Assembly: GCA_036172245.1 (NCBI GenBank)
Contig: JAYWIR010000035.1
Coordinates: forward strand, 2,170,001-2,234,000
Length of the DNA: 64,000 nucleotides
Direction: 5' to 3'
DNA from: Raillietiella orientalis
Lineage: Eukaryota
The notes beneath the pieces were generated by a model. That model was given only the letters and a program-made list of their open reading frames with translations, did not search any database and had not been told where the DNA came from. Below are positions 4,783-50,472 of the stretch, in pieces. How positions within the stretch are numbered: the first letter of the stretch is position 1; each line of letters begins with the position of its first letter. The position numbers and the translations under genes are program-made.

Positions 4783-4988
4783 TTGCCACCCGGTCACGCC
4801 GGGACGTTTATTAAAAATTCTCTTTGATTCGTGGTACGAGGCCCCACTACGGCCAACTGAACTGGACCTGCGGGGTCGCCGGTACGCAGACAGGCACGAC
4901 TCTCCTCGGCAGCGGAAGGGGGTGGGGGAAAAAACAAAAAGAAAAATAAAACATAAAAACAAAAAGATTTGGGAGGGTTGTGGAGGGA

Positions 4989-10546: not shown

Positions 10547-10634
10547 TGGACACCGCAGATGCTTCACACACAAACAGTACCGAAAAAGAACGCTTTACAC
10601 CAGGCGCGGAGGAGCGCTACAAGAACACGTCCGC

Positions 10635-18130: not shown

Positions 18131-18190
18131 GAGCTCTTCTCGCGTTCTCCTGTGTTGCTGGCTCACCTGTTAGCAGGCGGAAATTGAAAT

Positions 18191-19469: not shown

Positions 19470-19872
19470 TAAAGCAGCCACGCCATCGCAAAAACAACCT
19501 CTAGTTTCCTTGACTGCATCTATTCAAACAAGGGCAACGTAATAAACAACACACAAAACTTGAAACAAATTTTATTAAAAGAGTCTTAAAACATTAGGTC
19601 ATAAATATGAAATATAAACACTATATACGAACTGCAGGTTCCTTCACCGCATGGGTTAGGCTGCAGGTAGTATCTCCTCATGCTGTCTAAGCCTCACTGA
19701 TCTAGGAAGCGTGTGCTCGAATGTTCGTATTGCTTCATATAACTTTGTCCTTATATGTGCTACGCGATCAGTTCCTACTTGCGGAGTGATCATTTAGATG
19801 AGCTTGAGGGATAACTCCTTGGGAACCTTAGAGCAGAAGGCCTCCCACTCCGGAGAAAGGTCCTCCTTAGAT

Positions 19873-20616
19873 TCAATTGCTTGTTAGGACGTGTGGTGAT
19901 AAGCATAGGGTAGATTTAGGGTAGACGTTCAACATGAACGATCCGAGCCTTCCCAAAGTCGCGTCGGCTTCCGAGTCATTGTAAGTCGTACGAGCTTGCC
20001 CCGTGATATACCTTGCTCCGATATGATAGTGTTTGGCATTAAGCACGATGCTGGCGTAGGCTTCACCCAAGAAAAGCATGTTTTCTATTTCTCGACAGTT
20101 AGCTGCTTGTGCCCAGTTTACCAAGCGCTTGAAGGCCTGATATGCTACTGCGTGTCTATGCGTGCCAGCAGGTGGCGACAAGAACCGTAGCAATGCATCT
20201 TGAGATATTGACAGAGGCTTGAAAGGTGGTCCTTGGATGGTCAGTTGCATTGATTCTATTATATGTGTGAATCCAGCGAGCTCTAACACACGAAGAGTGC
20301 TGCAAAAATGTCCCAAAATATGTGCAATGTCCATTCCTTTTTCCTCTGACAATGGGGACCTTGCGAATAGGGAACGCCACACTTTTAAGGGGTATCCTGC
20401 GCCACGAGTGTTATCCTTTCTGATTCCTGTGTGGTGATTTGTTAGCCACCAGGAGACTTTCGTTGCTATAGTCAACACCATACAATTGGTCGCCAACTGC
20501 TGACTCAAGGCAGCCTGGCTAGCAGTTCTCTGAGCCGGAGTCATGTCGTCCTTTTGAGGGGTACGGCGCCAATCTCCGTCTGGCATCAGTACATCGTGGT
20601 ATAAGGTTCTATTCAC
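19873..20616 (-). CDS. Endogenous virus-like ORF fragment, possibly a qin-like negative-strand RNA virus nucleoprotein
   Basis: 247 codons open in an AT-rich block unrelated to the LINEs; motifs ATKVSWWLTNHHTG and PAGTH. The family call is from recall and was not searched. Confidence 0.5.
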   Translation of the reverse strand: MNRTLYHDVLMPDGDWRRTPQKDDMTPAQRTASQAALSQQLATNCMVLTIATKVSWWLTNHHTGIRKDNTRGAGYPLKVWRSLFARSPLSEEKGMDIAHILGHFCSTLRVLELAGFTHIIESMQLTIQGPPFKPLSISQDALLRFLSPPAGTHRHAVAYQAFKRLVNWAQAANCREIENMLFLGEAYASIVLNAKHYHIGARYITGQARTTYNDSEADATLGRLGSFMLNVYPKSTLCLSPHVLTSN

Positions 20617-20619
20617 GTG

Positions 20620-20924
20620 CCTATGCTCGGCGTACGTTAGATTTGTTTGGTGGGAAGGTGGAGCGTTATTCTCGTTATCCTTGGGTTGATTGTGGATCTG
20701 GAGCTTCTTTGGATAAGGAATTGTTGTCAGCGGTGTTTTTTAACCGTATCCATGTGATGAAGCATATGTCTGGTGTGGATATTCCTGATAGTATAAAGGC
20801 TCAATGTCAAGGAGGTATGTGTCCCAAAAATGGCACGATGACTCAAGGATACCCAGTGTACCGAATGACGAAAAAGTATTATACAGAGTTTAAACATTTG
20901 AGAGACCCACCACTGTATTCGTAA
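20620..20924 (+). CDS. Putative CRESS-DNA virus capsid, C-terminal fragment
   Basis: Convergent with Rep; RYPWVD and terminal YYTEFKHLRDP resemble circovirus-like Cap ends. Confidence 0.5.
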
Positions 20925-20958
20925 TAAGAGAATATAAGCAAAATACAAAATAAAAGGT

Positions 20959-21663
20959 TTATTTGTCTGCATTGTCTAAGAGGGGTGACAAAGTTGAGCA
21001 AGAGGAGTCAGGCGAGTCGCGGGCTTGCCCTGTACTAGGGCTTGAAGGGCAAGCCCAAGGGAGAATGGCTCCACTATCGTCCATTGTCCAAGGACAGAGT
21101 CCAGCACCATCATATCTTGAGATGTCACGAACATTCCATCGATCACTAGACATTTTATCATAGTTAGGTTCCCAGTTGGAGAAAACAATGATGTGTGGGG
21201 GTTCGAAGTATTTGATACTCCCTTGATATTTGGAGTCAAATATTACACCATTCTTTAGGCTTTCAATGAAGCCATATTGGACTATTTCCTGGTTGTCACG
21301 TGTCAGATCAACGAGAATGATTCTCTCCCCGTTGTAGATATGAGCAGCATCGGCTTTTCTACATGAGTGCATGTATATGGCTGCTTTTTTTAAATATAAA
21401 AACTTGGCAAATATGGTTTTGCCGTTTCCTCCCACTGGGTCATAGTACCAGTATATTTTGCGATTGTCTGGTTGGTTTCTGATGATTTTCAGTATGTCCA
21501 TTTGCCAACTGCGTAATTGCAAGTTGGCCATTGGGTTAGGGTGGCTTCTGCTCCTCGTTAACCGAAAGCATTCCTTTACGAAATTGATGTTTTCACTGTA
21601 GAACTTAGTGTGGTTCTCCAGTATGTCGAGCTCAGTGGCGCCATTTTTAATTAGCTGGAGAAT
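20959..21663 (-). CDS. rep: CRESS-DNA virus Rep, SF3 helicase half
   Basis: LRSWQ, Walker A (YDPVGGNGKT), Walker B (IILVDL), motif C (IIVFSN) and SSDRW. The frame stays open upstream of the ATG at 21531 (ILQLIKNGATELDILENH) to an AG at 21664. Confidence 0.9.
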   Translation of the reverse strand: MLQLIKNGATELDILENHTKFYSENINFVKECFRLTRSRSHPNPMANLQLRSWQMDILKIIRNQPDNRKIYWYYDPVGGNGKTIFAKFLYLKKAAIYMHSCRKADAAHIYNGERIILVDLTRDNQEIVQYGFIESLKNGVIFDSKYQGSIKYFEPPHIIVFSNWEPNYDKMSSDRWNVRDISRYDGAGLCPWTMDDSGAILPWACPSSPSTGQARDSPDSSCSTLSPLLDNADK

Positions 21664-21704
21664 CTGGAATACAATAAAATTATTTAATTAAACCGTTAAC
21701 CGAC

Positions 21705-21995
21705 CTAAAGCGGATCTTGTCGTGTGTTAGTAGGACATAAATGCCATTTATCATCAGTGTCAATTGGGCATCTTTGAACTGCTTTGAACTGTGAAGCCAC
21801 CCATTCGCAACCGCTGCAATGTTCTTGATGGTGACTAGCGTTGGTTGGCTGATTGATGGGCAATCGTTTATCTTCGGGTAGGGCTACGTCCGTACCGGTA
21901 GTGAGCCGTATCTCTATGTCCCCATCCAAGTATGGAAGACTTTCACTGTATTCTTCGAAGGCTGCGGCTAGCTCATCTTCTCTTGTAGCCGCCAT
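21705..21995 (-). CDS. Small hypothetical ORF in the CRESS segment
   Basis: MAATREDE..., 96 codons, no recognised motif. Confidence 0.35.
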   Translation of the reverse strand: MAATREDELAAAFEEYSESLPYLDGDIEIRLTTGTDVALPEDKRLPINQPTNASHHQEHCSGCEWVASQFKAVQRCPIDTDDKWHLCPTNTRQDPL

Positions 21996-22266
21996 ATTCA
22001 AGTTGAAAAACTAATACCTGGGTAAAGAGAAAAGGTTAGTGTCAATTAGAATATCAGGTTCCCACCCAAGTGCCTATAAAGCAAAATGTTTGCAGGAACA
22101 TGCTCATTCCCCCCGTAAGACTGCTAGCACACCACATTACAAACATGCTGTGCATACCTATAAGTACCATGAAAGCTACCTGAGAGCAAGTTACTGTCAT
22201 TTGGTTGCCGAGTCGACACAAACAGGACACTGGATTGTCATACATTACAGTCCTAATTATAATGTT

Positions 22267-22303
22267 TCTGAACTTCCTTATATTACGAGGAAGGGCCCTC
22301 AGA
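22267..22303 (+). promoter_or_regulatory. Putative rolling-circle origin stem-loop
   Basis: CTTCCT-TATATTACG-AGGAAG hairpin carrying TATTAC, with an outer TCTGA/TCAGA pair. Confidence 0.55.
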
Positions 22304-22643
22304 GTGTTTTCTGATAGAGGAGATTGAAATTTATCACCCGGTCACGCCGGGGCGTTTATTAATAATAATAAACTGGTCAGGGACAATGTCCCCAACCAAA
22401 AGAACGACAGAGAACATAGAAAAATTACCGGTGCGCAGGCCTGGTAAACAAACCGCTCGCAGCGTGGGGGGAATCAGGGGAAACAAACAAAAATCAAAAA
22501 CTGGAGGGAAGAATAACGGGTTTTTGGTTAGGCTCCGTACTCACGGAGATTTATACGATGAGCACCTAAAATGTTCCGGAGCCTATGGGGACGCGGGTGT
22601 AAAAAGAAAATACAAATTTAGTTTATGGAGGGTAGGGCAATGA

Positions 22644-25600
22644 TCACCGGGTTGGCCGCTGATGAGGGTGTGTAAACCGGCGGTGTATTGCGGCGAGATT
22701 CCTCTTTGCCTCCTCTGTCAAATGAGGCCATCTAGCGGATGCTCCCATGTAGAAGGATGCTTTGCTGATTACCTCTTGGTGCTGTCCGTTGATTACCAAC
22801 GCCAGGCGGACGGAAACTATCGCGCGTATGCAACCGATGGTTGCAATCCTTGCGCTTAGTGAAAGCCCGCTCGGCGTGAAGAATCGTCGCAGCAAGTCTC
22901 TTGCGGTGTCCACGGGATGCAATAGTGCTGTTGCCAGCGTACGCCACAGTCCTTGTAGGACACCGCAGTCCAGAAGTAGGTGCGGGATCGACTCCGTCGA
23001 TCCGTACCGAACGCAGTTCGCAGACGCAAGTCCCCCGGAGTCACGATGCCAACGCTCGTTGCACTGAAAACCCCAGTGAACGAAAAGCAGCACGGCTTGT
23101 TTCCAAGCAAGGGGGAGCAGCGAACTGTCCATACACTGTGGAGGGACTACAAGTTCTTCGGGGGTGACAGCAAGTTCTTCTGCCCACCGGAGGAGTCCCT
23201 TTGCAGTAACAAGAGGAGTGACGGCGTCCGCCAACTCACTTGTCTTCCAGGTGCCAAGGAGTTTGGTTCTTCCCGCTATCGTGCAGCAAACCTCCCACCT
23301 CGCCGGTTGGTAACTGTTGTTTCTTGCCCTGAGGGCAGACAGCGCTGCGGCAAGAGGCGTGGCAGCCAGGGTAGAAAATTTCACCTCGTCCTGCAGTACT
23401 TCTTCCAAGGATCGTGGAAAAAATTGGCGCAGGGGGCGAAGATCTTCAGGGCGTATTCCTTAGAACGCCGCCCAGGATTCAACAGACTCCTGCCGCGAAA
23501 CTTCAAAGTTCATTGGGCGGCAGGAGATCCAAGAGTGTGCTTCCAGAAATGCGGTCAACTGCCGCAATGGAAAACCGAAACCCCGCTTCCTGTATTGAGT
23601 GCCCGGCAAAAGCGAGAGAAATCCTCCGCTGCCGGCGCATCTCCGCAGGAGAATGCGAGCTGGCACACACAGGGGGGATGTCCAGAGCTGGGCACACAGT
23701 GCCAGCAGTCGGAACTGCACCTGCAGTCCGATTCGCTCCATTGTCAGGATACCCAAACCAGCATCCCGACGCGGAGCTGACAAATCTTAAAGGCGGATCC
23801 TGGATCTCGCCGGACCCCAGAGAGCGTTCCTGAGCAGGCGCTTAGCCCGCTGTTTTGCCGCATAGGGGGGGTCCAAAACAAAAAACAGGGGACGGAGGAG
23901 GGGGGCCACAAAGGTGTTCCAAATAGTCGCCCGTTCCTGCAACGTAAACTTGCCGTTAAAGAACGGGCTGATGGCCAACTCTGCTTTCTGAAGACAGTCC
24001 GCCCACGCTTCGGCTGCGCCGAAAGCGCCCAACGGAACGCCAAGGTACTTAAAGTACCCGCCCGTGGGGATCCCCAGGCGGATTCAGTCGGACTGCCCCT
24101 CCAACGACGTACCCACAGGAACGACCACGCTCTTCTCTCTGTTCACGCTCACGCCCGCTCCCCGACGAATCAGGTCGAAGAAATCCTCGACACTGGACGC
24201 CGGGGTGGACATGGGGAGCAGAAGAAGCAGGTCATCAGTGTAGGCGGCCACGGCAGGCGTTCCCGGGAAGGAGCTTGGCATGTGAGACAGCGTCAGCCTG
24301 TATGCTCTTAGCACCAACTCAAAGAAGATGCTGAAGAGCAACGGGCTTAAGCTGTCGCCCTGTCGGATGCCCCTACGAACAGGGATACCATACACGCGGC
24401 AGCCGCTAAAAGTGATGCAGGTTAGCGCGTTGCGCCAGCACGCGCGCAAATACAGCAGGAGTTGCGCCGGGAACCCAAGGCGTTCCATAAGCTCCAAAAG
24501 CAGCTTCTGGTTTACGCAGTCGAACGCCTTGTGGAGATCGACCGCGACCGCCAAGGCACCTGGCGTTCCCTCCTGCCGTCGGCGCCTGTTCTTTTTGCCT
24601 GCGGCAGTGACTTTCGCAGCAGCCTGGCTTTGTTGCGCCACAACATCCTGCAGCTGCATCCATGTACGCGCGAAAAGGATGTTTGCCTCCATGGATCGTC
24701 CCGGAACCGCGTAGGTTTGTTCCGGGCTCACCACAGATTCCGCGATTCTTCCTAACCGCGCGACCCACAGCTTTGAAAACAACTTGACGTCCGAGTTCAC
24801 CAAGGTGATCGGACGCCAGTTGTTAAGTTGGCGCAAGTCTCCGCCTTTCGGCAGGAGACGCACCTTCGCTGAGCGGAAGGAATCAGGGACATTCCCGGAT
24901 TCACTCATCAGCGTCGCGAGTTTAAGCATCAAGGGAATGAGCTCCACTGCAAAGCACTGATAAAACTCTGCAGGGGATCCATCCTCGCCTGGCGCCTTTC
25001 GTCTCTTCAGCTCAGCGATGGCGGACGAAAATTCATCCGCCGTGAAGGGCTCGTCGAGACGTTCGCGTTCCTCCTCGCCGACAACACGAGCATCCTGAGA
25101 CAGGAGTATCTCAGAAAGAATATCCTCCGTCGGGGATTCCGCGTAGAGCGAGGAGTAGGAGCGTCTCACAATGCGGCGTACTTCGGCTGGGGCCGAACAT
25201 TCCTGGCCCTTGTCGTCCAACAGGCATGCTGCTCCGGACTGCCAGACCTGGCGCTCGGCCTTCGCCTTGTACTCTGCGAGACGCCCGACATCCGCGCGTC
25301 TCGAAAACGTGCGGGCCTGCAGAAAGTCTCTACTGTTGGCCACGCCCTCTCCGAAACCGCGTGGAAGCCGGTGCAAGGGGAATTGGCAACAGAACTCGCG
25401 GACAGATCTTTTGAGATCGTCCCAGTCCGCAAGTTCTTGAATGGCAAAGCCCCGGAGGTATCCACGTAGATGCTTCGCAGCCTCCGGTTGCCTAAGCCAA
25501 TCCGCCTGCATCCTCCAGCTTTGCAACGGAGGCCCCCTGCCTGGCGGAAGGATCTCAAACTCCAGCCTGTGGTGGTGAGAAAGCTCAGTCAACACTCTTC

Positions 25601-26237
25601 CTCTCCTACCCACACGCGAATGCAGGTTTTCATCGAGGAAAACGTGATCGAGCGATCTTTCCATTCCAGGTTCGCTGACCATCAAGTTGGCGGCGTGCAC
25701 GGACGCGCACATCTCGATGGGCAGCGCGCGCTCCCTCGGGCGGCTCCAATCGTCGGAGAGCAGGCGGACGTTGACGTCCCCAGCGACGAGGTGCGCCACT
25801 TGGAAGCCGGAGCTGTTGAGCCACTGGCTCTGCACCTCACCAAAGAAAGCTACTCTTTCTTCGAGGTAGCGAGAGCCACTCGGCGCGTAGACGTTCGTAA
25901 CGACGAGATCGATGGACTCGGACCACTTGATGACAAGCTGGCCTATCCGTCCGTTGTCATCGAAACGAACACTACGCACCGCTTCCGCCATTTTTCCTCT
26001 TACGAGGAACGCGAGGCCGCACGTGTGTGCGCCGCCGCACCGCCAATGTAGCGTTCCGCCTGCGCGCTCCTCGATTTCGGCTGCCTGCTCGTCGGAGATT
26101 ACGGGAATCTCCTGCAGCAGCGCGAGGTCGAAGGGGCGCAGGGCGTTGGCTACTAATCGCCTCTTCTCGTCGTTCTGCAGTCCGTTCACGTTCCAACACG
26201 TTACGGACAGACGACGAGAAGACGCGATTCCCCGCAT
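22644..26237 (-). pseudogene. ORF2 of F2 (APE-RT-CCHC)
   Basis: 717-aa ORF with APE and RT motifs (YTDD); premature stop at 24084 and further stops downstream. Confidence 0.9.
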
Positions 26238-28141
26238 TACTGCTGGGAAGGTGGCAGCTTTTTGCTCGCTTTATCCGGCGAGCAGACGGCGAGCAGCACG
26301 ACTGGCTGGAGGGGACGGTCGCCACCGTCCTCTGTCGTGCTGCATGCATGTAATGCCTCCACGCCAGGCTGAACCCCGTCGTGTTTCGTGGAGACTTCGC
26401 GTTGCTTCGCGGCGAGCGTTGCCTGGCTGCCTACTTTTGATCGGCGCGCACACGCTGTCGAACGAGTTGTCCTCGTCTCGGTGATCGGAACGGCATCCAT
26501 TTCAGAGTCCCACCGGCGCATGTTCGATCGGGTTTCGGCCTTCCGCGAAGCAGTGACAGGTTCTGCTGGATTGACAGCTGTCCTGTTTTCGTTTTCCGTC
26601 ACCAGAGCATCGCTTTTGGTGACGGCTGCTTTCCCGGCGCGCGCGTTTTCAGCGTGCTCACGCGCAGTTGCACGAGGGACCTTTGCTGAAGTCTTCTTTA
26701 CTTCATTACGGTTCCTCACTTCGCGTGGCGCCGTAAATGGAGATTGTGCTCCATGGCCATCTTTGAAGCCATCCTCGTCTTTGGACGGGAGCACTTTCGA
26801 TGGCTCCGACACGCTCGTCATGGACGCTGCTTTCGGAAGGGCTTTTAATCCCTTCGTTGGCATGGCATCCGCGCCAGTCGAGAGCTTGATCTCCGACTGC
26901 GACGGCGTGAGATTTTTCTCCGCTTTCGCGGTGTTGGATCGCGACGCGGATTTTTTTTTGCCGACTTTCGAAGTCGACACGGCGCAACCCTTCTTACCCG
27001 ATTTGGGCTTCTCAGCCACTGCAGGAGGTGAAGGAATGGATCTGACGGTACTGGAAGTGTCCTTACCGCCGTTGTCCATTGGCGTCCCCGCCGGTTGCTC
27101 GAACTCCGAGAGAGCCGGGCGTGCTTGGGAAGGACAGCTATTGCGCCTAGGGGGACTTACCATTGCCCCGGATTCCCCGCACCCTTTCTTTTGCGGCTCC
27201 CCTGCCGCGAGGCGGGGTGCGCAGGGCTTCGCGTGCAAGGTTTCCTGCTGCTTTGGGGCGACATTCCGCCTCGCGTTTTTTCGGAATTTCTGCCGTGGGG
27301 TCTCCAGGTTTTTCGCAGATTTTTTCTTTTTATCCGCGCTTTGTTTTTCAAAATGGAGCTCCGCGGCTGCCTTTTTTCGCAAAAGATCCAGGCAATTTTT
27401 CAATTGGTGCACGGATAGTTTGCAATAACGGCATTTTCCAGAGGGGCATTTATCCAAAGAATGCCCCTCCTTCCCGCATTGATCGCACGTTTTTACTTTG
27501 CCCACGAACCACAGGTGAACGACCGTGTCTTTCACCTGTAGTTTGGTGGGCAGCAGACGGCGTTCCGGCATTGTAAGCCGGACTCCAGCGACTCCGCTGT
27601 GTATGGACAAGAAGTCCTTGAGGTTGCTACGCACCCTCCACAGCGCATGGACCGTGGCGAATTTCGCCAACGCGTTCCGAATATCAGTATCGGAGATTTC
27701 CGACTCGATGTCGAAAATCTCCACCACAAATGAGTCGTCCATGGCGGCCGGGAAGAACTTCTGGCCACGGATCGACAACAAGGTGCGCAGCAAGCGTTGC
27801 ACAAGTGCAGCGTCTTTGCAACGCACCTTGAAATAGCCCATGTCTTTTACGGGCATAATGGCGAGAAGGTCCTCCTCCCGCACGCCAACACGGTTCAGTT
27901 CATCGTTGAAGTGATTCCCGTCGCGCGCAGAAAGAAAACCACTCACCTTATATCGGAGAGCAGGTCTATAGCCTTGGGCTACGTATGCCCGCAACTCCGA
28001 CTCGTCGAGTGGTTTCCCTTTGACGGCTGCTGTGGCAGCAACGTCAGCAAAACTCCTCTCCATTGGCGGGAAAGACGAAGTGGAGGCGGCCGTCGGTTCT
28101 GCGATTGCAGATCCGGATGCTGTTCCTCCAACTTCGACCAA
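26237..28141 (-). CDS. ORF1 of F2
   Basis: 634 aa with CDQCGKEGHSLDKC knuckle; TAATG overlap with ORF2. The true start may lie slightly upstream across a frameshift. Confidence 0.8.
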   Translation of the reverse strand: MVEVGGTASGSAIAEPTAASTSSFPPMERSFADVAATAAVKGKPLDESELRAYVAQGYRPALRYKVSGFLSARDGNHFNDELNRVGVREEDLLAIMPVKDMGYFKVRCKDAALVQRLLRTLLSIRGQKFFPAAMDDSFVVEIFDIESEISDTDIRNALAKFATVHALWRVRSNLKDFLSIHSGVAGVRLTMPERRLLPTKLQVKDTVVHLWFVGKVKTCDQCGKEGHSLDKCPSGKCRYCKLSVHQLKNCLDLLRKKAAAELHFEKQSADKKKKSAKNLETPRQKFRKNARRNVAPKQQETLHAKPCAPRLAAGEPQKKGCGESGAMVSPPRRNSCPSQARPALSEFEQPAGTPMDNGGKDTSSTVRSIPSPPAVAEKPKSGKKGCAVSTSKVGKKKSASRSNTAKAEKNLTPSQSEIKLSTGADAMPTKGLKALPKAASMTSVSEPSKVLPSKDEDGFKDGHGAQSPFTAPREVRNRNEVKKTSAKVPRATAREHAENARAGKAAVTKSDALVTENENRTAVNPAEPVTASRKAETRSNMRRWDSEMDAVPITETRTTRSTACARRSKVGSQATLAAKQREVSTKHDGVQPGVEALHACSTTEDGGDRPLQPVVLLAVCSPDKASKKLPPSQQ

Positions 28142-31100
28142 GTAGCTTCAAGTTGGGTCGACATCGTCGTCAAAATGTACGACGCCAAGATGAAGCGGAT
28201 GAAAGCACGGAGACGAGAGCGAAGAAAAACACGTCCGCACTCGATTGAAATCTCCTGCTATCAGGTGAGCCTTTCGCACCTTGGTATTCGCCAGCCAGTC
28301 GCGTTTCAGGGTTTCCAGCAGCCTGGTGCGGTCGCGGTACCCCTGTTTGCCGCTGGGGCCATACACGTTTGTGACCATTAGGTCGATCGAGTCGGACCAG
28401 CTGAGAATCAGCTGACCGATCCGACCGTCGTCATCAAACCGCACGCCCTTTACGTCAGCGTCGATGGCCGGCTTCACGAAGAACGCGACCCCGCATGTGT
28501 TGCGGAAGCCGCATCGCCAATACAATCGACCCCCCACGATCGTCTCGATCTCCTGGGCGTCTCCCGCGGTGATCACGTGGATCTCTTGCAGCAGCGCAAG
28601 GTCGAGCTCACGCAGGGTGTCGGCCGTATCTCGCCTGTTGCCGTCGTCGCGCAGCGCGTTGACGTTCCAACAGGCCGCGCGAATGCGACGGCGACTGGCG
28701 AGCCCAGGTGTTAGTCCTGGGAAAATGGCGATGCGGCGTCCGCCACCTGCTGGGGCGGGACGCTAGGTGGAGGGGGAGGGGGGACAGGTACTGAAGGCAC
28801 CTTTTCCTCCTCCTCCATCGGTGCCGGCGCGTCGGCCGGATCACCCGCACGTGGAGTCGCGCCTACTTCCATCGCGGTGTCCTCTGGCAACGCTGCCATC
28901 CGACACCGACGATGTGCACGCACAAATCACTCAAGAAGAAAAAACACTCGCTTTGCCACGCAGGCGGAGCGCAGGAAAAGAACGTCCGCTCTCCACAGCC
29001 GGGCTTCGGCATTGTCAACCGGGTACGCCGGGGCGTTTATTTGTAAAATCTACATGCGTGGTACGAGGCCCCACCACGGCCGTAAACACGCGACCTGTCC
29101 GGACACCGGGACGCAGCCCTTCGTGGCACTCCCCAACAGCGAAGGGGGATGGGAATAAGACAAAAAGAAAAATAAAAAGAAACAAACAAAAAGAAGTTGG
29201 AGGGCAGGGAAGGGATCACTGGTCGCTGTGAGGAGGGCCCATCCGTCGAACGAAGCCCTTGAGGTCAGTCTGCATATTCCCCAGTTGGGGCCATCCGGCA
29301 GCTCTTCGCAAGAAGCTATGGGCATACGTGATGACATCCCTCGCCTGTGGACCCACTCCTTCGTTGCTGGCGTCGCTCCATGCCGCCACGATGCCACGGA
29401 CGCAGCACAAGGCTGCGATGGCTGCGGCTGGCTGCAGTGCGTCCTTCACGAAGAGGGGCCGAAGAACGTCTCTGGGGGTGCTGCCCGTAGGGAGCCCGAG
29501 GGTCGTCCCGAACCGTTCCCAAAGGCGTCGGAGGGCAGCACAATCCACAATAGGGTGAAGAAGCGACTCCCGCTCCCCGCACCTGGCACACGCAGGATCC
29601 ACAGCTCCCCTCGTCTACTGGAAGCTGCGCGGGTTGCAGGGTAGACCCCAGTGCAACAAAAGCAACGCCGACTCTTGCCACTTGAGGGGCAGGATCCTGG
29701 ATTCCTTCATCACCGGGGGCCACTTCAGCTCATCCCTGGGGATGGCGAGCAGCTCGCCCCATCTTAATAATCCTCGCGGCTGCATGCTCGGGGTCGTGGC
29801 GTCGGCCAGTTCTCCTGTTGTCCAGCCGCTGATCAACTTCTCGCGTCCCTCGATGCAGCAGGAGACTTGCCACCTTGGCGTCCGGGTGCTGTGAAGTGCC
29901 CTCCTTAGGAAGGGCAGCGCCGTAGCTAGGCAGGTCGTCTCTGCCCAGGTGCATCTTGCTGGACTCTCCAGGAGATTCCGCAGCGTGCCGCGGGCGTAGG
30001 GGCTGCATCGGAGACGATTCCACGTCTCGTGGCTTGTCTGGTTAACCACTGCCCACGTTCCAATATTCTCCTCCAGCCAGGCGGGAGAGTTGCCGGGGCA
30101 GCAAACCATCCAGCTGTTCTCCTTGGCCAATGTTGCCATGCGCCAGAGCAGTAGGCTGCTTCTTCGCATCTTGCGGACACGGGTCAGAAGAAAAGACGCG
30201 AGTCCATCGCACCGGCATACACGGCTGGACAGGAGGCGGGCCGGAGTGCACCAAGGGGTGCTCCACATCTTTGCTGCGATGGCGAGGGTTCGCCACCGCA
30301 GCTGCTTCTCCACGCACTCCGGCGTCAGGAGGCCAAAACCGCCGTCCCGACGAGAAGCGAACAAGTCCTTCGGTAAGAATCGGGGCCTTCCCTTGCCCCA
30401 AAGGGCGATACGGAGGAGATCCTTCGTCCTCTTCTTGGATTCCACGGTGGGGGGGCAAACAAAAAGCAAGGGGCGGAGGATGGGGGCCGCGAAGGCGTTC
30501 CAAACCGCGGCCCGTTCCGGGATGCGAAACTTGCCTTCCAGGAACGGGCCGATCGCCGTCTCGACTTTTTGGAGGCAGCTGGACCACGCTTCCGCAGGGG
30601 AGTAGTCCCCAAACGGCACACCAAGGTACTTGAAGCACCTCGCGGTGGGGATCCCCAGACGGAGCCAGTCCTGCTGCCCTGCCCAAGCCGCACCTATTGG
30701 CACAACCAACGACTTCGAACTGTTAACCTGCAGTCCGGTCCCGCGGTTGAGCAGATCGAAGAAGTCTCCGACCGCCATTGCCGGGGTGGACATTGGCAAC
30801 AAGAGCAGAAGATCGTCGGCGTACGCTGCAACGGCGGGCGTGCCGGGGCACGAGCTCGGCAGTGGGGCCAGAGTCACCCTGTACGCTCTCAGCACCAACT
30901 CAAAATAGGAGCTGAAGAGCAGGGAACTGAGGCTATCGCCCTGCCTTATGCCCTGCCGCACCGGCACGCCATGCACCTTGTGACCGCTGAAAGAGACGGT
31001 AATTATCGCATTCCGCTAGCAAGAGCGCAGGTAAGAAATCAGGGAGAGTGGAAAGCCCATGCGACCCAGGAGCTGCAAGAGGAGTTCCTGGTCTACACAG

Positions 31101-35213: not shown

Positions 35214-38200
35214 TTGCCACCCGGTCACGCCGGGGCGTTTATTTAAAATTCTCTTTGGTTCGTGGTACGAGGCCCCACTACGGCCAACTCAACTGGACCT
35301 GCCGGGTCGCGGGTACGCAGACCGGCGCGACTCTCCTCGGCAGCGGAAGGGGGTGGGGGAAAAAACAAAAAGAAAAATAAAACATAAAAACAAAAAGATT
35401 TGGGAGGGTTGGGGAGGGATCACTGACCACTGGGAGGAGGGTCCATCCTTCGCAGGATGCCCTCGAGGTCCGTCCGTATAATCCCCAGGTGGGGCGATCT
35501 GCTCACAATCCGCAGTTAGCGGACTGCAAGTACGACGGCATCCCTGTCGTGATTCGGTCTTCCGACGTTGCTCCAGCACGTCACAATCCCGCGTACGCAG
35601 CAAAGTGCAGCCAGGGCAGCGGCTGGACGCAGGGCATCATGCACGAACAGAAGCCGAAAAACGTCTCTGGGCTGGCTGCCCTCCTGGATCCGTAGGGAGG
35701 CACGAAGACGTTCCCACAGTGGTCGGAGGGCAGCACAATCAACAAGGAGGTGGGGGAGAGTTTCCCGTTCCCCACACCTGATGCAAGTAGGATCTACTCG
35801 ACCCCTGGTCCAGTGGTGGCGGCGTGCGTTGCAGGGTAGACCCCAATGCAACAACAGAAGCGCCGACTCCTGCCACTTTAGGGGGAGGATCCTAGAACCA
35901 ATTAATACCGGGGGCCACTTCAGGGCATCCGTCTGGATGCCGAGTAGCTCACCCCATCTCTGAAGTCCACTCGGCTGGACAGTAGGTGTACTGGCGTCCG
36001 CCAGTTCACCCGTGGACCAGCCGTTGATTAACTTCTCCTTGCCTGCGATGCGGCAGGAGACTTGCCACCTAGGCTTGCGGCTGCTGGAGAGCGCCCTCCT
36101 CAGGAAGGGCATCGCCGTTGCTAGGGGGGTTGTCTCTGCCCACGTGCTTCTCGCGGGACACTGGAGTATCTTCCGCAGAGTGCTGCGGGAATAGGCGCCG
36201 CGTCGCAGGCAGTTCCACATCTCTTCATTCTTTTCATTAATCTTCGCCCACGTGCCAGCTGTCTCCTCCAGCCATGCGGAGGAGTTGGCGGGGCTGCATA
36301 CCATCCAGCCGTTTTCCTTCGCCAGAGTTGCCATGCGTCCCAGGAGAAGTCCGCATCTCTTGATCTTCTTGCCACGGCAGAGAAGATAGGACGCGAGACC
36401 CTCCGTCCCGGATACACGGCTGGCAAGGAGTCGGGCCGGAACGCACCAAGAAGTGCTCCATAACTTCGCTGCGATGGCGAAGTTTCGCCACCGCAGCTGA
36501 ATCTCTACTCGCTTTATCGTCAAGAGGCCGAGACCGCCATCCCGACGTGGAGCACACAAGTCCTTCAACGGAACTCGGGGCCTCCCTCTTCCCCAAAGGG
36601 CAATTCTCAGGAGGTCCTTCGTCCGTTTTTCAACTCTCTGGGGACGGGGCAAACAAAAAGCAGGGGGCGGAGGATAGGAGCCGCGAACGCGTTCCATACC
36701 GCGGCCCGTTCCGGAAGGAGAAACTTGTCTTCCAGGAACGGGCCGATCGCCGTTTCCACTTTTTGGAGGCAGCCGGACCACGCTTCCGCGGGGGAGTAGT
36801 CCCCCAACGGCACACCAAGGTACTTCAAGCACCTCGCCGTGGGGATCCCCAAGCGGACCCAGTCCTGCTGCCCAGCCCACGTCGCACCGACTGGCACCAC
36901 CGTCGACTTCGCCCTGTTCACCGTAAGTCCGGTCCCGCGGATAAGCAGATCGAAGAAATCCCCGACCGCCTTCGCCGGGGTGGACATCGGCAACAGAAGC
37001 AAAAGATCGTCGGCGTATGCTGCTACGGCAGGCGTGCCGGGGCACGAGCTCGGCAAGGGTGCCAGTCACCCTGTACGCTCTCAGCACCAACTCAAAGTAG
37101 GTGCTAAAGAGCAGGGGACTGAGGCTGTCGCCCTGCCGTATGCCCCGACGTACCGGCACGCCGTACGCCATTTGACCTCTGAAAGAGATATTGATCAGCG
37201 CGCTGCGCCAGCAAGAGCGCAGGTAGGTCAGTAGGGAGTGAGGGAAGCCCATGCGTCCCAGGAGCTCCAGCAGGAGATCCTGGTCCACGCAGTCAAACGC
37301 TTTGTGCAGATCGACTGCGATCGCTAGGGCTCCCTTCCCCACCTGGGAGTCCTGTCCCTGCCCGGCTGACGCTCCCAAAGCGGGGCTGCCAATCCTTTCC
37401 TCTTCCTTTTCTTGACTACTCTGCACATGAAACCATGTGCTCGCGAAGAAGAGGTTGGCCTCCATACTTCGCCCGGGAACAGCGTAAGTCTGCTCCGGGC
37501 TAATTATGGAATTGGCCACCTGCCCCAGACGCGAAGCCCACAGTCCGTCGATCAACTTGGCGTCCGTGTTCACAATTGTGATCGGACGCCAGTTGCTGAG
37601 TTTCCTGAGGTCTCCTCCTTTCGGAAGGAGCCTCACTCTGGCTGACCGAAACGAGGCGGGTACATCGCCTTCATCTCGGATCAGCCTTGTCAACTCAAGC
37701 ACCAGGGGTGCCAACTCTGCCGCGAAACATTGAAAAAACTCCGCAGGCAGGCCGTCCTCCCCTGGTGCTTTCCGCCTCTTGAGCCTTTTGATACCGGCGA
37801 GAATTTCGCCGGTGGTAAAAGGCTCGTCGAGGCTTTCCTTCTCCTCCTCCCCTATTGCCGGGGCACCGTTCGGAAGCATGCGCCGAGAGGCATCTTGGTC
37901 CGGGGGCGCCCTGGCGTAAAGGGAGGAATAAAAACGCCGCACGAGGTGCCGTATTCTAGCCGGAGCCGAGTGCTCCCGGCCCTGGTCGTCCAGCAAGCTG
38001 GCCGATCCGGATTGCCAGGCTAGACGTTCGGCCCCGGCTCGGTATTCTGCCAGGCGAAGGACATTGGGAGTCCTCTCGTACCGGCGGGCGTGTAAATAGG
38101 CCCTATGGTTACGAGCCCCCTCCCCAAATCCGGGGGGCAGGCGGTGCAGAGGGAACTCCTCGCAGAACTCGCGGACCGAGGCCTTCAAGAGGTCCCAATG

Positions 38201-41200
38201 TTTGAGACTGCGGAGGGTGACGCCTCTCAGGAATTCGCGAAGGTGTTCCTTCGCACCTGAGAGTCTCGTCCAGTCCCCAGGCAGACGCGACGCCCTGGAT
38301 GGGGGCCCTTGTCGCGCGGGCATACCTCGAATATCAACCGGAAATGGTCAGGCAGCTCCGACGCAACTTTCCCCCGTTTGCCGACCCGTGAACACAGGTC
38401 GACATCCAGGAAGACGTGGTCGATGCTGCTGACCATTTCCGAAAGATCCCCTAACAAGTTGCGCGTGCGCATTGCGGCGCACAACTCGTTAGCCGTCCGT
38501 TCCTGTGCGTGTGGCTCACCTGATAGCAGGCGGAGATTAAAGTTGGAGGCTTTGTGGTTAAGGCCTCCGCGCGTGGCACCATGCGTCGCGGGATCGAATA
38601 CTCTGGCAGAAACTGACGCCACTGCGTCGTTGGGTTCCGAGTTTCTCCTGCAATGGCGCTGGTTGGCCGATAACATTCGGGCGTGGCACCGGTGGTCGTT
38701 TAAGCCGGAGGCCCCTGATGGAGGCCGGAACAATGGAAGTCGACCTTCGGGTCCTTCCAGGAATCCAAGGAGTGGGGAGTTCCCCCTCCGGTCGTGCAAC
38801 GGAGAGCGGACCCCCTTAGCTGGGGTCCCATCCGAGTCGTCGCCTCTTCACAGAGTGCAAGAGAAGGAACATGGAGCAGGAGCCCAAGCGGGGCTCCTCT
38901 CCTAGTTGTTCGATGGAGCGGACCCCCTCAGCGGGGGTACCCTCCCAGTCGTCGCCTCTTCACAGAGTGTGCGCAATGAAGCAAGCGAGAGCGATTCCCT
39001 GCGGGAAGCTGCAGCGGCCCTTCTGAGTTTCGGAAGCGTCCCTTCGGGGTTGTCTTCAGAGGAGTGAATAAAGGAGCGGTTCCCTTGCGGGTTCCCTCCG
39101 GAGAAGTTGAAATGGAGAGGACAGCCCCTCCCCATTGGGGAGGGAGGGTCCCTCCGGAGAGAATAAGGAAAGAGACAACCAGGGTGGGAGGTGCGATCCC
39201 CCCAAGGGTGAGAGAGGAAACGGAGATTAAAGTCTCCCGCTATCAGGTGAGCCACGCGCACGTTCGCTTCCACCAGCCAGTCGCGCTTTAGGGTTTCCAG
39301 GAACGCCTTACGTTCCTGGTATTGGTAGGACCGCTCGGAGCGTACACATTTGTTACGACGAGGTCGATCGTGTCGGACCACCTGAGAATCAGCTGGCCGA
39401 CACGACCGGCTTCGTCGAAGCGCACGCCCTTCACGGCTGCGTCGACTGCCGGCTTCATAAAAAACGCGACGCCGCAGGTGTATCGGGTGCCGCATTGCCA
39501 CATCAACCGTCCCCCTGCGATCCTTTCGATCTCCTGGGCGTTCTCCGCGGTGATCACGTGGATCTCCTGCAGGAGTGCCAGGTCGAAGTCACGCAGGGTG
39601 GCGGCCGTGTCCCGTCTGTTGCCGTCGTCGCGCAGCCCGTTCACGTTCCAGCAGGCCACGCGTAATCGACGGCGACAGGCGAGCCCAGGTGTTACTCCTG
39701 GGAATGTGGCAATGGGGCTCCCGCCACCTGGTCGGGCGGGACGGATGGAGGCATGGGGGCACCGCCCAGCGGTTCTCCCACCTCCATGGGGGCCGATTCC
39801 TCGGCGGACCGCAACGGTTGAATGGAGCATGCTTCACGCACCTGCTTCCCCTCTTCCATGCGGGCCGATTCCTCGACTGCGATGGACGGCAGGGGGGAGC
39901 GGTTCTCAGCTGTCTGCTCCCCCTCTTCCATGACCATCTTCTCCGCAGGCTTCACCTGTGGAAGGGGGAGGCAATTCCCTACCTGCTCCCCCTCCTCCAT
40001 GGGGGTGGCCGGCTGCTCGGTGGCGAAGGGTGGGAAAATTCCTACCTCCATTCCCACGCTGCCGGCTTCCCCCTCGGCTGCCGGTGCGTCCCCCTCGCTC
40101 TTCGTCGGGATGCGCCTCTTGGGATTCTTGGACTTCCGTCCAGTCTTCTTCGGAGGCGCCTCCGCGGAGGAGGACGCACTTCCGGCATCCGGTTCGTGGT
40201 CACCTGTCCGAGGTGCCTTGCTCGCGGCCGGCCTTCGCAAGGCCTTTCGCGCGCCGGTCTCACGCTGCGCGAGTTCGGCCGCGAGCTCTTCCGCCTCCTG
40301 CTGGAAGGCGGCGTCCTCGATTGCGGCGAGCGCGTCGCTCGGCTCCCCCTCTGTTTGCACAGAGGTTTCGCCTTTTTCGATCGCGGCTTCGGCGTCAACG
40401 AGGCGGGAGATATCTCCCCCGGTGGAGGTCTCGGGGAGCTCCACTCGCTCCAAAGCGACCGAACATTCGCGGAGCAACGCGCGGCGTTGTCTCCTATTTA
40501 AAGAAGATGTCGCGGGTTCCGCTGTCGGTTCTTCGGTATTCTTTAATTTTTTACTTTTAGGCTTCGCCTTATGCCAGCCCTCGCTCTCTCCAGCGTCGTC
40601 GGGAGTACCCTCGACCGGCGCTTGCTGCACGGGTTCGGGCTCTGGCTGTGGGTTCCGCCTCTCGGGTGCCTCCTTAGGCTTGTCCGATCGCCCTGCGCGT
40701 TTCCCTTTGGCTTTTTTCAAAGCAGGGGGAGCCGGGGTTTCGCATTTAGGACACACCTTCCGCAGGTGGCCCTTTTCGCCGCAGTTGAAGCACTGGATGT
40801 GGGGGCACCGTTTTTTCAGGTGCCCTGTTGCATCACAGTGCCCACAGTACTTGGGCTTGCCCACGAACCAGACGTCGACGACCTCGTTGCCGACGTCGGG
40901 TTTGTGGGGCAGCCCACCGTTTTCGTGGACCGTCACACGCGCTGCAGCCATGCCACTGAACAGTCTTCCGTATGTTTGGAAGACGTTGGGCTTGGTCCAG
41001 AGCGCGTGCACCGTACCATGTTTTTGTAACTCTTCCTGCACGCCAGCTTTGGTCATGCGAAGAGTTACACCCGTAAGGTGGGCAACAATGGAGCGGTCCT
41101 CCGTTACAGGGAACACCTTTCGGCCTTCCAGAGTGATGGGAGTGTTCAGCAGGCGTTGAGCCAGACTTGCATTTTTGCACGTCAGCTCTACCCGCTGGCC

Positions 41201-41801
41201 CCCACGCATCACGGAGACACCTTCCAGGTCTTCCTCTTTAACATCCAACCGCTGTAACTCCCTTTCAAAGTTACGAGCGGTGTTCCCTATAAACAGGTTT
41301 CCTACCTTGTAAATCAAGGACGGCTTGTATCCTTGTTCCAGGTAGGCCCGTTGTTCTGCTAAGGCAGCAGGAGATGGCGCTGCAGCCACGGAGCTCCAGG
41401 TCTTCGTGCATGGAGCAGGTGGATCCAAGGACGCGGTTGCCCCCTTTTTCAAGGGGGCGGTTGCGGCCTTTTCCAAGGCGGCGGTTGTCCCCTTTTTCAA
41501 GGGGGCGGTTGCGGCCTTTTGCACGAGAACGGTTGCTCGCTTTTTCAAGGTGGCAGTAGCCCTCGTTTCCGGAGAGGCGGTTGCCCCCTTTTTCAAGGGA
41601 GCGGTTGCTCTCTACTCCGTGGGGGCGGTTGCCTTCACCTCAATAGGTTGGGGAGAGGAGCAATCCTCTCCCCCGCCGACTTCCATCGCGGTGTCCTCAG
41701 GCATTTCTGCCATTGGACACCGCAGATGCTCCACACACAAACACTACCGAAAAAGAACGCTTTACAACAGGCGCAGGGGAGCGCGGAAATAACACGTCCG
41801 C
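35214..41801 (-). mobile_element. Full-length subfamily B copy 2
   Basis: TSD A(T/C)GCCAAGTTGATAG (35199-35213 / 41802-41816); ORF1 about 39692-41713; ORF2 frameshifted. Confidence 0.95.
38544..39220. mobile_element. 677-bp non-LINE, hairpin-rich insert with 13-bp TSD
   Basis: CGGAGATTAAAGT at 38531-38543 and 39221-39233; the site is empty in B1 (8103-8115). Confidence 0.92.
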
Positions 41802-43500
41802 ACGCCAAGTTGATAGCCAAGATGTGGGCAGAGCGTCTGGGACGGGTTGCCAACATCTTCATCAGCCCGGAACAGACTTATTCTGTTCCCTGGCGGAGCA
41901 TGGAGGCGAACCTGTTCCACGCTTCCACATGGTTAGAGCTCCAACAAGGAAGGGGCTTATTGAGCAGCCGGAATTCCGGTGCGTAAGTTGGCGGGAGACA
42001 AAACGGTCGAGTGGGGAAGGGAGCCCTTGCGGTCGCTGTCGACTTGCGTAAAGCATTCGACAGCGTCGACCAGAATCTCCTGCTGGAGCTTCTGGAACGC
42101 TTGGGCTTCCCGGCCTCTTTGTTGGCCTACCTGCGCTCCAGCTGGCGCGACGCGCTCATTAATGTTCTTTTCCGCGGGCAAACCGTGCACGGAGTACCGG
42201 TGCGACGCGACATTCGGCAGGGAGACAGCCTGAGCCACCTGCTCTTTAGCGCCTTTTTCGAATTGGTGCTGAGAGCGTACAGGGAGACTCTTGCGCACCT
42301 GCCGTGCGATTGCCCCGGTACGCCTGCGGTTTCGGCGTACGCGGACGATCTTCTGCTGCTGCTGCCTATGTCCACCCCGGCCTCGGCGGTCGAGGACTTC
42401 TTCGACCTGCTGAGTCGTGGAACAGGACTGACGGTGAACAGGGCGAAGTCGTGCGTAATGCCAGTCGGAGCGGCGTGGGCAGGGCAGCAGGACTGGGTCC
42501 GTTTGGGGATCTCCACGGTGAGGTACTTCAAGTACCTTGGTGTGCCGTTGGGGGATTACTCCCCTGCGGAAGCGTGTTCCGGCTGCCTTCAGAAGGCTCA
42601 GGCGGCGATCGGCCCGTTCCAGGACGGCAGGTTCTACCTGCAGGAACGGGCCACGGCGTGGAACGCGTTTGCGGCCTACCTCCTTCGCCCTTTGCTTTTT
42701 GTTTTCCCCCCCTCAGCGGAGTCAAAGAAGAGGACGAAGGACCTCCTGAGGATCGCCATTTGGGGCAGAGGGAGGCCCCGTGTCCGTCTTTCGGACTTGT
42801 GCGCTCCTCGTCGGGATGGTGGTCTGGGCCTCCTGACGTTGGAGCGGCTGGAGCTACAGCTCCAGTTCCGAGTTGTTGCGTTTATGGCAGGAAATTGGTG
42901 AACCCCTTGGTGCCTCCCTGCACGTCTCCTCGTCGAGCGGGCCACCGGCAATGCGGGACTCTCGTCCTACTTTGCACTCCGAAGCCCCATCTGCCACTGC
43001 GGACTTCAACTTCGGAGGGCGGCCAAGCTCGTGAAGAGCAACTCGGCGCGGATCCTCGTACGCCCCGCGAACGGTCCTGCCTGGTTGCAGGAAACCGTCC
43101 GCACGTGGGCGATGACTCAGGAGCAGAGCCCGCAACACGAGCGAATAGCTCTGTTCGGGCCGCATGCCCGCCGCACGCTCCGAGAAATCATCGAGAATCC
43201 CCGAAGGAGAGCGTGGGCACAAAGAACCTCCCTTGCTGCGGTACTGCCTACCCTACGGGAACATCTGGGCAGCGACGTCGCGGCACAATGGGAGGTTACT
43301 GTCAAGATCGCCAGCAGGGCAAAGAAGATCGGGGATTGGAGAACGGGTCAGCTCACCAACGCTGCGACCCCGAGGACCACCCCAAATGGAGTGTTGCGCT
43401 GGGGAGAGCTACTGGATGTTCCAGAGGAACATCTCGAGTGGCCCCCGGTGCTCATGGACTCGCGCACCCTCCCCATGAAGTGGCAACAGTCGGCACTGCT

Positions 43501-49010: not shown

Positions 49011-50472
49011 ACGTCGGCGCTGCTGGTGTTGCATTGGGGGCTTCCTTGCAACGCCCGCCGACAACACTGGACGCGGGGGGGTGTTAACTCTAATTGTGTC
49101 AGGTGCGGGGAGAGGGAATACCTCCCCCACCTGCTAGTGGAATGTGTTGCCCTCCGTCCCTTGTGGGAACGCTTTGCCGCAGCCCTGGGGATCCCCGGAG
49201 GCAACCCCAGAGACGCTTTGCGCCCCCTCTTCGTCCGTGACGTCCTGCCTCCAGCGGCCTCGCTTGCAGCCCTGTGCTGCCTCCGCGGGATCGTCGTGGC
49301 ATTAGGCAAAGCGACGGGAGGATCCAGCGACAGGGATGCCAACGTGTATGCCGCCCGTTTCCTCAGGATGGCGACGCGATGGCCCCATCTGGAACCACAC
49401 AAGCAGAAACAGCTTGCCGGCATCCTCCAGAGGATGACGGACCCCAGCAGACTGTGATCCCTTCCCGCTCCCTCCCTGATTTTTGTTTATTTTTTCTCTT
49501 CTTTTTGTTTCGTTCCCCCTCCCCTCTGCTGCCGAGGTCGACCGCGCCGGTCTGCGCACCGGTAGCCCGGAAGGATATATCTTTCCAGGGCGTGGCTAGA
49601 CTACTGGTCCAGTCACAGATTGTATAGGTTTATTCGTGAGAATAAACGTCCCGGCGCACCCGGGTTTCAATAGAGATTCCGGAGCGTGACGCCTCTGAGG
49701 TATTCGCGAAGGTGTTCCTTCGCACCTGAGAGTCGCGTCCAGTGCCCCGGCAGACGCCAATCCCTGAATGGCGGTCCTTTGTCGCGAGGCCGCATCTCGA
49801 AAATTAACCGGGAATTGTCCGACAACGTCGACGCAACCCTCCCCCGTTTGCCGACCCGTGAACACAGGTCAGCGTCGAGGAAGACGTGGTCGATGCTGCG
49901 GACCATTCCCCTCTCACCCGCGAACAAGTTGCGCGCACGCATGGCGGCGCACAACTCATTCATCGCGTTCTCTTGTGTTTCTGGCTCACCTGTTAGCAGA
50001 CGGAGATTGGAATCTCCCGCTATCAGGTGAGCCTTCCGCACGTTCGTGTCCGCCAGCCAGTCGCGCTTCAGGGAATCCAGCAGCCTGGTACGGTCGCTGT
50101 ATCCCTGTTTACCGCTGGGGGCGTACACATTCGTGACGATCAATTCGATCGAGTCGGACCAGCTGAGAATCAGCTGACCGACCCGACCGTCGTCATCGAA
50201 GCGCACGCCCTTCACTGCAGCGTCGATGGCCGGCTTCACGAAGAACGCGACCCCGCAGGTGTTGCGGAGGCCGCACCGCCAATACAACCGACCCCCCGCG
50301 ATCGTCTCGATCTCCTGGGCGTCTGCCGCGGTGATCACGTGGATCTCCTGCAGCAGGGTCAGGTCGAGCTCACGCAGGGTGACGGCCGTATCTCGCCTGT
50401 TACCGTCGTCGCGCAGCCCGTTCACGTTCCAACAGGCGGCGCGAATCCGACGGCGACTGGCGAGCCCAAGTT

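Follow-up and report, generated by a model that had tools for sequence, protein, structure and literature searches.

A candidate non-coding retroposon at the nick used by a site-specific LINE in a nested retrotransposon region of Raillietiella orientalis

In stringent pairs of long and short interspersed nuclear elements (LINEs and SINEs), such as UnaL2/UnaSINE1 of the eel, the two partners have a 3' stem-loop in common, while SVA is a composite RNA polymerase II retroposon with variable internal repeats. The short internally deleted elements (SIDEs) of R2, in the part of the source considered here (Eickbush and Eickbush 2012, PMC3414825), are internal-deletion derivatives that retain the R2 5' ribozyme and 3' end. 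Nested LINE clusters, Zepp and ZeppL, have been proposed as centromere components in green algae, again in the parts of the sources considered (PMC3446292, PMC8226300). Here we describe a 677-bp non-coding insert in a 64,000-nt stretch from Raillietiella orientalis (assembly GCA_036172245.1, contig JAYWIR010000035.1, positions 2,170,001 to 2,234,000; hereafter the window, whose own numbering is used throughout). The window is a nest of retrotransposons without long terminal repeats (non-LTR elements) of ∼60% GC, in which self-comparison found dozens of copies, 70–94% alike and nested in one another. The insert interrupts one of these copies at the same plus-strand position at which two insertions with LINE 3' ends entered another.

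The insert was delimited from its target-site duplication (TSD) and from the alignment of its host LINE copy, B2, with a related copy, B1. The sites and elements concerned are as follows.

38544..39220, minus strand (proposed sense, the same as LINE F and host B2): 677-bp non-coding insert; boundaries from the TSD and the break in the B1/B2 alignment
38531..38543, no strand assigned: left TSD copy, 13 bp, CGGAGATTAAAGT; 13/13 identical to 39221-39233
39221..39233, no strand assigned: right TSD copy, 13 bp, CGGAGATTAAAGT; a direct repeat read from the sequence
35214..41803, minus strand: host LINE copy B2, with the insert in its endonuclease (EN)-coding GDFNLR site; open reading frame (ORF) 1 with CCHC, ORF2 with EN and reverse transcriptase (RT); 13-bp TSD GCCAAGTTGATAG at 35201-35213 and 41804-41816
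4783-10636, minus strand: LINE copy B1; 13-bp TSD GCCAAGTTGCTGG at 4770-4782 and 10637-10649
8103..8115, no strand assigned: empty paralogous site in B1, uninterrupted
50001..50013, no strand assigned: another empty site, located in a LINE copy of D type, CGGAGATTGGAAT^CTCC (the caret marks the junction)

The initial annotation had described a 677-bp insert with a perfect 13-bp TSD and an empty counterpart in B1; the first two can be read directly from the sequence, and the B1 site runs ...CGGAGATTAAAGT^CTCCCGC without interruption at 8103-8116. The alignment of B1 with B2 breaks exactly at the insert, with 2731-8115 corresponding to 33159-38543 (91.3%) and 8103-10469 to 39221-41588 (92.5%). 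Since the TSDs of B1 and B2 match within each copy and differ between copies at three positions, the two are independent insertions into one site rather than a segmental duplication, and the B1 site is therefore a paralogous empty site. Two of the four B/D-type sites in the window are empty and two are occupied. On the minus strand of B2 the TSD bases encode the endonuclease residues GDFNLR, and the codons of this motif are split by the insert. Read-through in frame was considered, as insert and TSD together measure 690 bp, a multiple of three, and was rejected; the B2 frame hits a stop inside the insert, where ORF 38902-39501 ends. The insert has no terminal inverted repeats, and 13 bp is long for the TSD of a DNA transposon. 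The observation itself, a TSD-flanked insert at a LINE site, is sound.

Positions 18190 and 28243 bound the break in the fourth B/D-type site, which holds two insertions, F' being the older and F having followed it into the regenerated site.

22331..28242, minus strand: LINE F, full-length, inserted in a D-type copy at the plus-strand nick that the 677-bp insert also has; TSD of 9 bp, GATTGAAAT, at 22322-22330 and 28243-28251
18191..22309, minus strand: F', the earlier insertion at this nick and a chimera, in which 1.28 kb of the 3' part of F (18191-19469) is joined to a block of low GC (19470-22309) that contains a Rep helicase ORF of CRESS type

The 3' part of F' (18191-19469) is 86.6% identical to F. 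Its 3' end adjoins ...GGAAATTGAAAT^ at 18190/18191, the 3' end of F adjoins ...GGAGATTGAAAT^ at 22330/22331, and the target repeat that follows the F' chimera is imperfect, covering ∼20–24 nt at 22310-22330. The plus-strand junction, T^CTCC at the end of (A/G)AA(A/G)T, is identical in all three independent events (F', F and the insert), and the second junction is variable, with TSDs of ∼24, 9 and 13 bp, respectively. The insert had been placed by the initial annotation at exactly the cut used by F; this holds for the plus-strand nick, (A/G)T^CTCC, and does not hold for the nick on the other strand (TSD of 9 versus 13 bp). The TSDs of B1 and B2, both 13 bp, are similar in length to that of the insert.

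Integration by LINEs with an apurinic endonuclease, through target-primed reverse transcription (TPRT), is expected to leave a signature in which the priming nick, at the 3' end of the element, is invariant and the second nick varies. If this signature applies here, the invariant nick would be the priming nick, which would put the 3' end of the insert at 38544 and make its RNA minus-sense. A TSD-flanked non-coding insertion at the plus-strand nick of F is what a non-autonomous rider of the F integration machinery would leave. Our preferred reading, in which we place about even confidence, is that the insert belongs, as a single copy, to a family of non-LTR retroposons that are non-coding and non-autonomous, and that it was inserted by TPRT at the F-type nick and is probably minus-sense. 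In this scheme, a plus-strand nick at (A/G)T^CTCC would be made by the endonuclease of an F-type LINE; this position is the tip of a conserved palindrome, which encodes GDFN of B/D-type LINEs. From the freed 3'-OH, a minus-sense RNA with the hairpin ...GGAGGCCUUAACCACAAAGCCUCCA as its 3' end would be reverse-transcribed, and a second nick on the other strand, 13 nt away, would yield the 13-bp duplication.

The palindrome at the target is parted by the insert in B2 and recurs elsewhere in the window.

38511..38527, no strand assigned: left palindrome arm GTGGCTCACCTGATAGC, 17 bp, enclosing the target and parted from its partner by the insert
39239..39255, no strand assigned: right palindrome arm GCTATCAGGTGAGCCAC of the same palindrome
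8083-8137, 46849-46893, 49985-50033, 34182-34260, 14190-14270 and 56250-56330: palindrome sites around endonuclease GDFN codons

The B1 palindrome has perfect 17-bp arms (8083-8099 and 8121-8137) around GGAGA-TTAAAG-TCTCC. Arms of at least 12 bp with a spacer of at most 40 were found at 5 loci in the window (11 listed rows), while 18 of 20 block-shuffled windows had none and the other 2 had 3 rows each. The palindrome recurs at the GDFN codons of at least five LINE lineages (70–80% alike), with arms of 7–17 bp. When six copies were aligned, 77% of cells paired, compared with 30–45% when the partner was slid; pair 31-75 is G-C in four copies and U-A in two, the third base of an Ala codon covarying with a Glu/Ala codon. 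Covariation was modest overall, being reached by 39 of 500 shuffles. F, F' and the insert all entered at the palindrome tip. The apex of a palindrome with 17-bp arms, conserved in several lineages, could also act as a structural break point, and the insert would then be filler DNA captured during break repair at a fragile site. The junction is nucleotide-identical in the three events, however, and the duplications are clean and staggered, which argues for an enzyme-made nick; two of the three events, moreover, are LINE 3' ends joined in the manner of TPRT. We regard filler DNA as a very improbable origin.

Against the described systems, the locus shows both likenesses and differences. As in the UnaL2/UnaSINE1 pair, the LINEs of the window have a conserved terminal stem-loop and no poly(A), and recognition of a short partner would be expected to depend on its 3' end; unlike UnaSINE1, the insert lacks the common 3' tail that defines such pairs. 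Like SVA, it lacks an ORF, has an internal part that is modular and varies in length, is flanked by TSDs and presumably depends on a LINE; unlike SVA, it has no poly(A) tail. It is short, non-coding and TSD-flanked, as a SINE is. ARAGORN and Rfam identified in it neither a 5' head derived from tRNA, 5S, 7SL or small nuclear RNA (snRNA) nor an internal RNA polymerase III promoter, and its 3' end is neither a partner-LINE tail nor poly(A). Like the R2 SIDEs, as far as they are set out in the part of PMC3414825 considered, the insert is a short non-coding element located exactly at the target of a site-specific non-LTR retrotransposon, whose proteins it would presumably use, and it has the target site and nick of the autonomous element. 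Unlike the R2 SIDEs in that account (PMC3414825), it shares neither end nor internal sequence with F or any other LINE of the window. The family is new, and the kind of element, a non-coding retroposon-like rider at a LINE-specific nick, is already known. If our reading is correct, the existence of a rider that has the nick of a site-specific LINE and a different tail prompts the question of template choice by stringent non-LTR reverse transcriptases.

The insert has no detectable coding capacity. None of its three overlapping ORFs matched a Pfam family (3/3 negative; no large protein-database search was made with the insert frames), and tblastx gave no match to the LINE ORFs. A second copy or fragment was not found within the window, even at a word size of 7, and LINE 5' ends also showed no similarity to the insert.

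Relatives of the insert were recovered from public sequencing data. The Logan index listed two runs, each with 0.05 of the sampled words and neither of them an RNA run. Contigs of run X1 gave no match to 38000-39800 at 80% likeness or above, and run X2 gave 106 contigs at the same threshold (≥99%: 3; 95–99%: 10; 90–95%: 41; <90%: 52). Summed X2 depth was 30–49 over 38549-38792 and 45.6 over 39037-39097, only 0.4–2 over 38793-38975, the stretch with a duplicated module, and 10–17 over 39098-39219, with 10 over 39159-39219. At least 12 X2 contigs have C at position 39052, where the window has G. A form shorter by 251 nt is seen in one contig, where 38765 is connected to 39017. The sequence beyond loose ends at 39064 and 39106 resembles a stretch further along the insert, and 39075/39081-39106 is repeated through two back-joints. 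Together, the X2 contigs show what appears from sequence to be a diverged, length-variable repeat family, with a usual form that would measure ∼430 nt. The depth pattern is consistent with a minus-sense element that is shortened or varies at its 5' end.

Several structural features listed in the initial annotation are present in the insert. These include the hairpins GACC-TTCG-GGTC, CCC-TTCG-GGG, CCCTCCCC-ATT-GGGGAGGG and GGAGCCC..GGGCTCC, an internal duplicated module for which self-comparison gave 54 nt at 91% identity, and a minus-sense 3' end, GGAGGCCTTAACCACAAAGCCTCCA, that consists of a hairpin and then CCA and has no poly(A).

38804..38857, no strand assigned: copy 1 of the internal module, 54 nt, with 91% identity to copy 2; located within the stretch absent from most run X2 copies
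38916..38969, no strand assigned: internal module copy 2, 54 nt
38544..38568, minus strand: terminal hairpin GGAGGCCUU-AACCAC-AAAGCCUCC followed by A; the 3' end if the RNA is minus-sense, and unlike the LINE tail

Tandem Repeats Finder returned 0 rows, and runs of A in the insert never exceed 3. With 150 dinucleotide shuffles, the fold z-score of the insert was −2.64 on the plus strand (2/150 shuffles as good) and −3.71 on the minus strand (0/150); with 20 shuffles the values were −4.55 and −2.65, respectively. Six control windows of 677 nt in LINE ORF2 (starts 6000, 16000, 25000, 36500, 45800 and 53000; 40 shuffles each) gave z-scores of −4.0 to −6.0. Perfect hairpins of at least 6 bp number 5 in the insert, against a window mean of 2.9 (standard deviation 1.7), and 15% of windows have 5 or more. 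The description of the insert as distinctively highly structured is not borne out, in that neighbouring LINE windows fold at least as well and the hairpin count lies only in the top 15%. Because LINE ORF2 coding sequence folds far better than its dinucleotide shuffles, fold z-scores alone cannot flag structured RNAs in this region.

A further alternative is that LINE machinery made the insert as a one-off retrocopy of some RNA, whether cellular or foreign (an rDNA spacer, an mRNA or a viroid-, satellite- or narna-like RNA). The CRESS-type Rep gene fused to the F 3' part nearby suggests foreign capture by the same machinery, and an end in a hairpin and CCA with no poly(A) would suit such an RNA. 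The Rep capture, however, is a chimera with the F tail, which the insert lacks, and at least 12 sequence-distinct contigs, with length variants, point to a diverged repeat family in X2; this family disfavours both a single captured RNA and homogenised rDNA. Rfam at gathering scores gave 0 matches across the whole window, ribozymes included, in a search that divergent HDV-like folds could escape. Raising the limit to E 10 over 38400-39350 gave 5 weak matches (13.8–18 bits, against gathering scores of 35–63.5), none of them to a tRNA, 5S, 7SL, snRNA, rRNA or ribozyme, and ARAGORN reported 0 genes in the whole window. Three patterns from the insert had 0 matches in IMG/VR, as did the 23-nt module core in JGI metagenome contigs. 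Five JGI loci that matched a terminal-hairpin pattern showed no similarity outside it and were set aside as chance. With no ribozyme or Rfam family, no IMG/VR or JGI metagenome match, folding no better than that of its neighbours and many diverged copies, the suggestion that the insert is a captured viroid-, satellite- or narna-like RNA is not upheld, and nothing is in favour of a viroid-like origin. A one-off retrocopy of any kind is in our estimation highly improbable.

The initial annotation had also proposed that the insert is a SINE-like parasite mimicking the 3' hairpin of the LINEs, for which the LINE tail provides a direct comparison.

4783-4830, 18191-18238, 22331-22378, 35214-35261, 43500-43548 and 55215-55263: LINE 3' tail, examples of 14 sites

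Eleven LINE 3' ends in the window align to AATAAACG(C/T)CCCGG-loop-CCGGGTGAnAA, with no poly(A). A covariance model of these 11 ends, run over the whole window with filters off, recovered all of them, 3 further LINE ends and one overlapping weak match (E 0.92). Several results weigh against the retroposon family that we favour. The same model found nothing on either strand of 38544-39220 at E up to 10, and when the last 70 nt of the insert, in either orientation, were locally aligned to four LINE tails, 77 to 286 of 300 shuffles scored as well. The insert RNA would end in ...CCA, as opposed to the AA of every LINE tail here. Since the insert has no LINE tail, the choice of this template by a LINE reverse transcriptase is left unexplained. 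No promoter was identified in the insert, the window holds a single copy of it, and the evidence for a family comes from the contigs of one run, from which copy number, flanks and strand cannot be read. The plus strand alone carries the C(UNCG)G tetraloops CUUCGG (twice) and CUGCGG (once), and several G-U pairs in the plus-strand fold become C-A mismatches on the minus strand. Mimicry of the LINE hairpin can be discarded on the covariance model and the alignments, the sole resemblance being the possession of some terminal hairpin and no poly(A). What stands of the proposed SINE-like parasite is its non-autonomous character, through the TSD-flanked non-coding insertion at the F nick and the diverged multi-copy family in one run; the mimicry of the tail does not stand.

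Orientation was assessed on the same evidence. A minus-sense insert RNA seems to us quite probable, the points for it being the common priming nick and the higher X2 depth on the 38544 side. The same kind of element could alternatively be plus-sense, a SINE-like RNA running from UGGAGGC... to ...GAGAGAGGAAA and primed at a minus-strand nick, ...AATCTCCG^CCTGC, in which case the coincidence with the F nick would come from the second cut. Such an RNA would end in AAA, resembling the AA of all LINE tails, and the UNCG tetraloops and G-U pairs lie on its strand. CUNCGG occurs 6 times on the plus strand of the insert and 3 times on the minus strand (all 3 CUCCGG), against a window average of 1.1 per 677 nt. 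The plus strand is G-rich (34% G versus 27% C), which by itself favours G-U pairs, and the tetraloop and G-U hints are to that extent confounded. A B-box-like GGATCGAATAC was seen by eye ∼48–58 nt from the plus-sense 5' end, a 9/11 match that by rough estimate is near chance in 677 nt. In the plus sense, however, the junction that is invariant in three events would be the non-priming nick, and X2 depth is lowest at what would be the 3' end. That end shows no LINE-tail similarity (77–123 of 300 shuffles as good), ARAGORN found no tRNA-like gene, and Rfam found no tRNA, 5S or 7SL at E up to 10. We consider the plus-sense alternative unlikely.

The insert could also be the 5'-truncated copy of an unseen LINE family that has a long, different 3' untranslated region (UTR) and the target preference of F. 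Truncation at the 5' end is common in LINEs, and F' is itself truncated at 19469; the insert is wholly non-coding, as a 3' UTR would be, and X2 depth is higher on its minus-sense 3' side. A single tail is, however, common to all 14 LINE 3' ends, which belong to several lineages 70–80% alike, and is lacking from the insert; in a comparison covering the LINE families present in the window, neither a tail nor an ORF2 remnant was found. Measured from the ORF2 stops, LINE 3' UTRs here are ∼300 nt rather than the 677 nt or more that would be needed. X2 depth is also not monotonic, as the value of 45.6 at 39037-39097 is as high as that of the 3' side, and no well-supported loose end at 39220 appears among those listed in X2. 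A truncated LINE strikes us as a rather unlikely source.

Two routes by which a non-coding RNA family might enter the integration of a stringent site-specific LINE with no LINE tail can be put forward, though both are speculative and together very unlikely. The terminal GGAG...CUCC hairpin may be read by the protein surface that recognises the target apex, GGAGA-TTAAAG-TCTCC (target mimicry), or the ancestor of the family may be an autonomous RNA replicon, its minus strand having been endogenised before amplification. Inspection by eye suggests a likeness between the target site and two parts of the insert, its terminal hairpin (GGAG...TTAAG..CTCC) and 38711-38729. In local alignment of insert and target, 152 of 500 shuffles reached the best score, and the resemblance was treated as chance.

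The wider setting may outweigh the insert itself. The large ORFs of the window carry RVT_1, Exo_endo_phos, zf-CCHC and zf-RVT domains (Pfam), and L1-type LINEs, with ORF1 and an ORF2 encoding an apurinic-type endonuclease and reverse transcriptase, are nested with TSDs, as is expected of a Zepp-like cluster. Because B1 and B2 entered one site independently, B too appears to be site-specific, and the nest would have been built by LINE families, each directed at a fixed site within a different family. One of these targets lies at the tip of a conserved hairpin that spans the catalytic GDFN codons, and the same machinery brought in a CRESS-virus-type Rep gene. Compared by description only, and with the parts of PMC3446292 and PMC8226300 considered, the locus resembles Zepp and ZeppL in its nested LINE context, here with B1/B2 in one site and F/F' in another; neither a non-coding rider nor a hairpin-apex target is described for Zepp or ZeppL in those parts (PMC3446292, PMC8226300). 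Given that nested LINE clusters are proposed there as green-algal centromere components (PMC3446292, PMC8226300), insertion rules of this type are relevant to the construction of such regions. For one ORF2 of the window, the closest public proteins were 22–29% identical (9 hits, of which one came from a plant), and the nearest Atlas cluster was mostly Streptophyta.

The F' insertion at 18191-22309 looks like a LINE-made chimeric retrocopy. A low-GC block (44–50% GC, against ∼60% around it) is fused 5' of the truncated F 3' part at the F target. Its Rep-like ORF, 20959-21687 (242 aa), has 39% identity (E 5e-29) to the superfamily 3 (SF3) helicase half (aa 119–267) of a 267-aa metagenomic protein, P0010, in which a Viral_Rep domain of the circovirus/nanovirus type lies narrowly under the cut-off (PF02407, E 1e-4). 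No HUH half of Rep was found in the window; searches with the Rep-like ORF found no relatives in IMG/VR and no match in PDB, and the adjoining 288-aa ORF (19873-20739) had no match. Among other features of the LINEs, the target of B1 and B2 encodes ...NADAKLL in the RT of a plus-strand LINE, and full-length B and F copies have a common 5' end, GTGCGGACGTGT. The 5' part of the B ORF1 region (10320-10470 and 41424-41633) contains ∼48-nt tandem repeats (GGGGCAACCGCCCCCTTGAAAAAGG-like), the number of which differs between B1 and B2.

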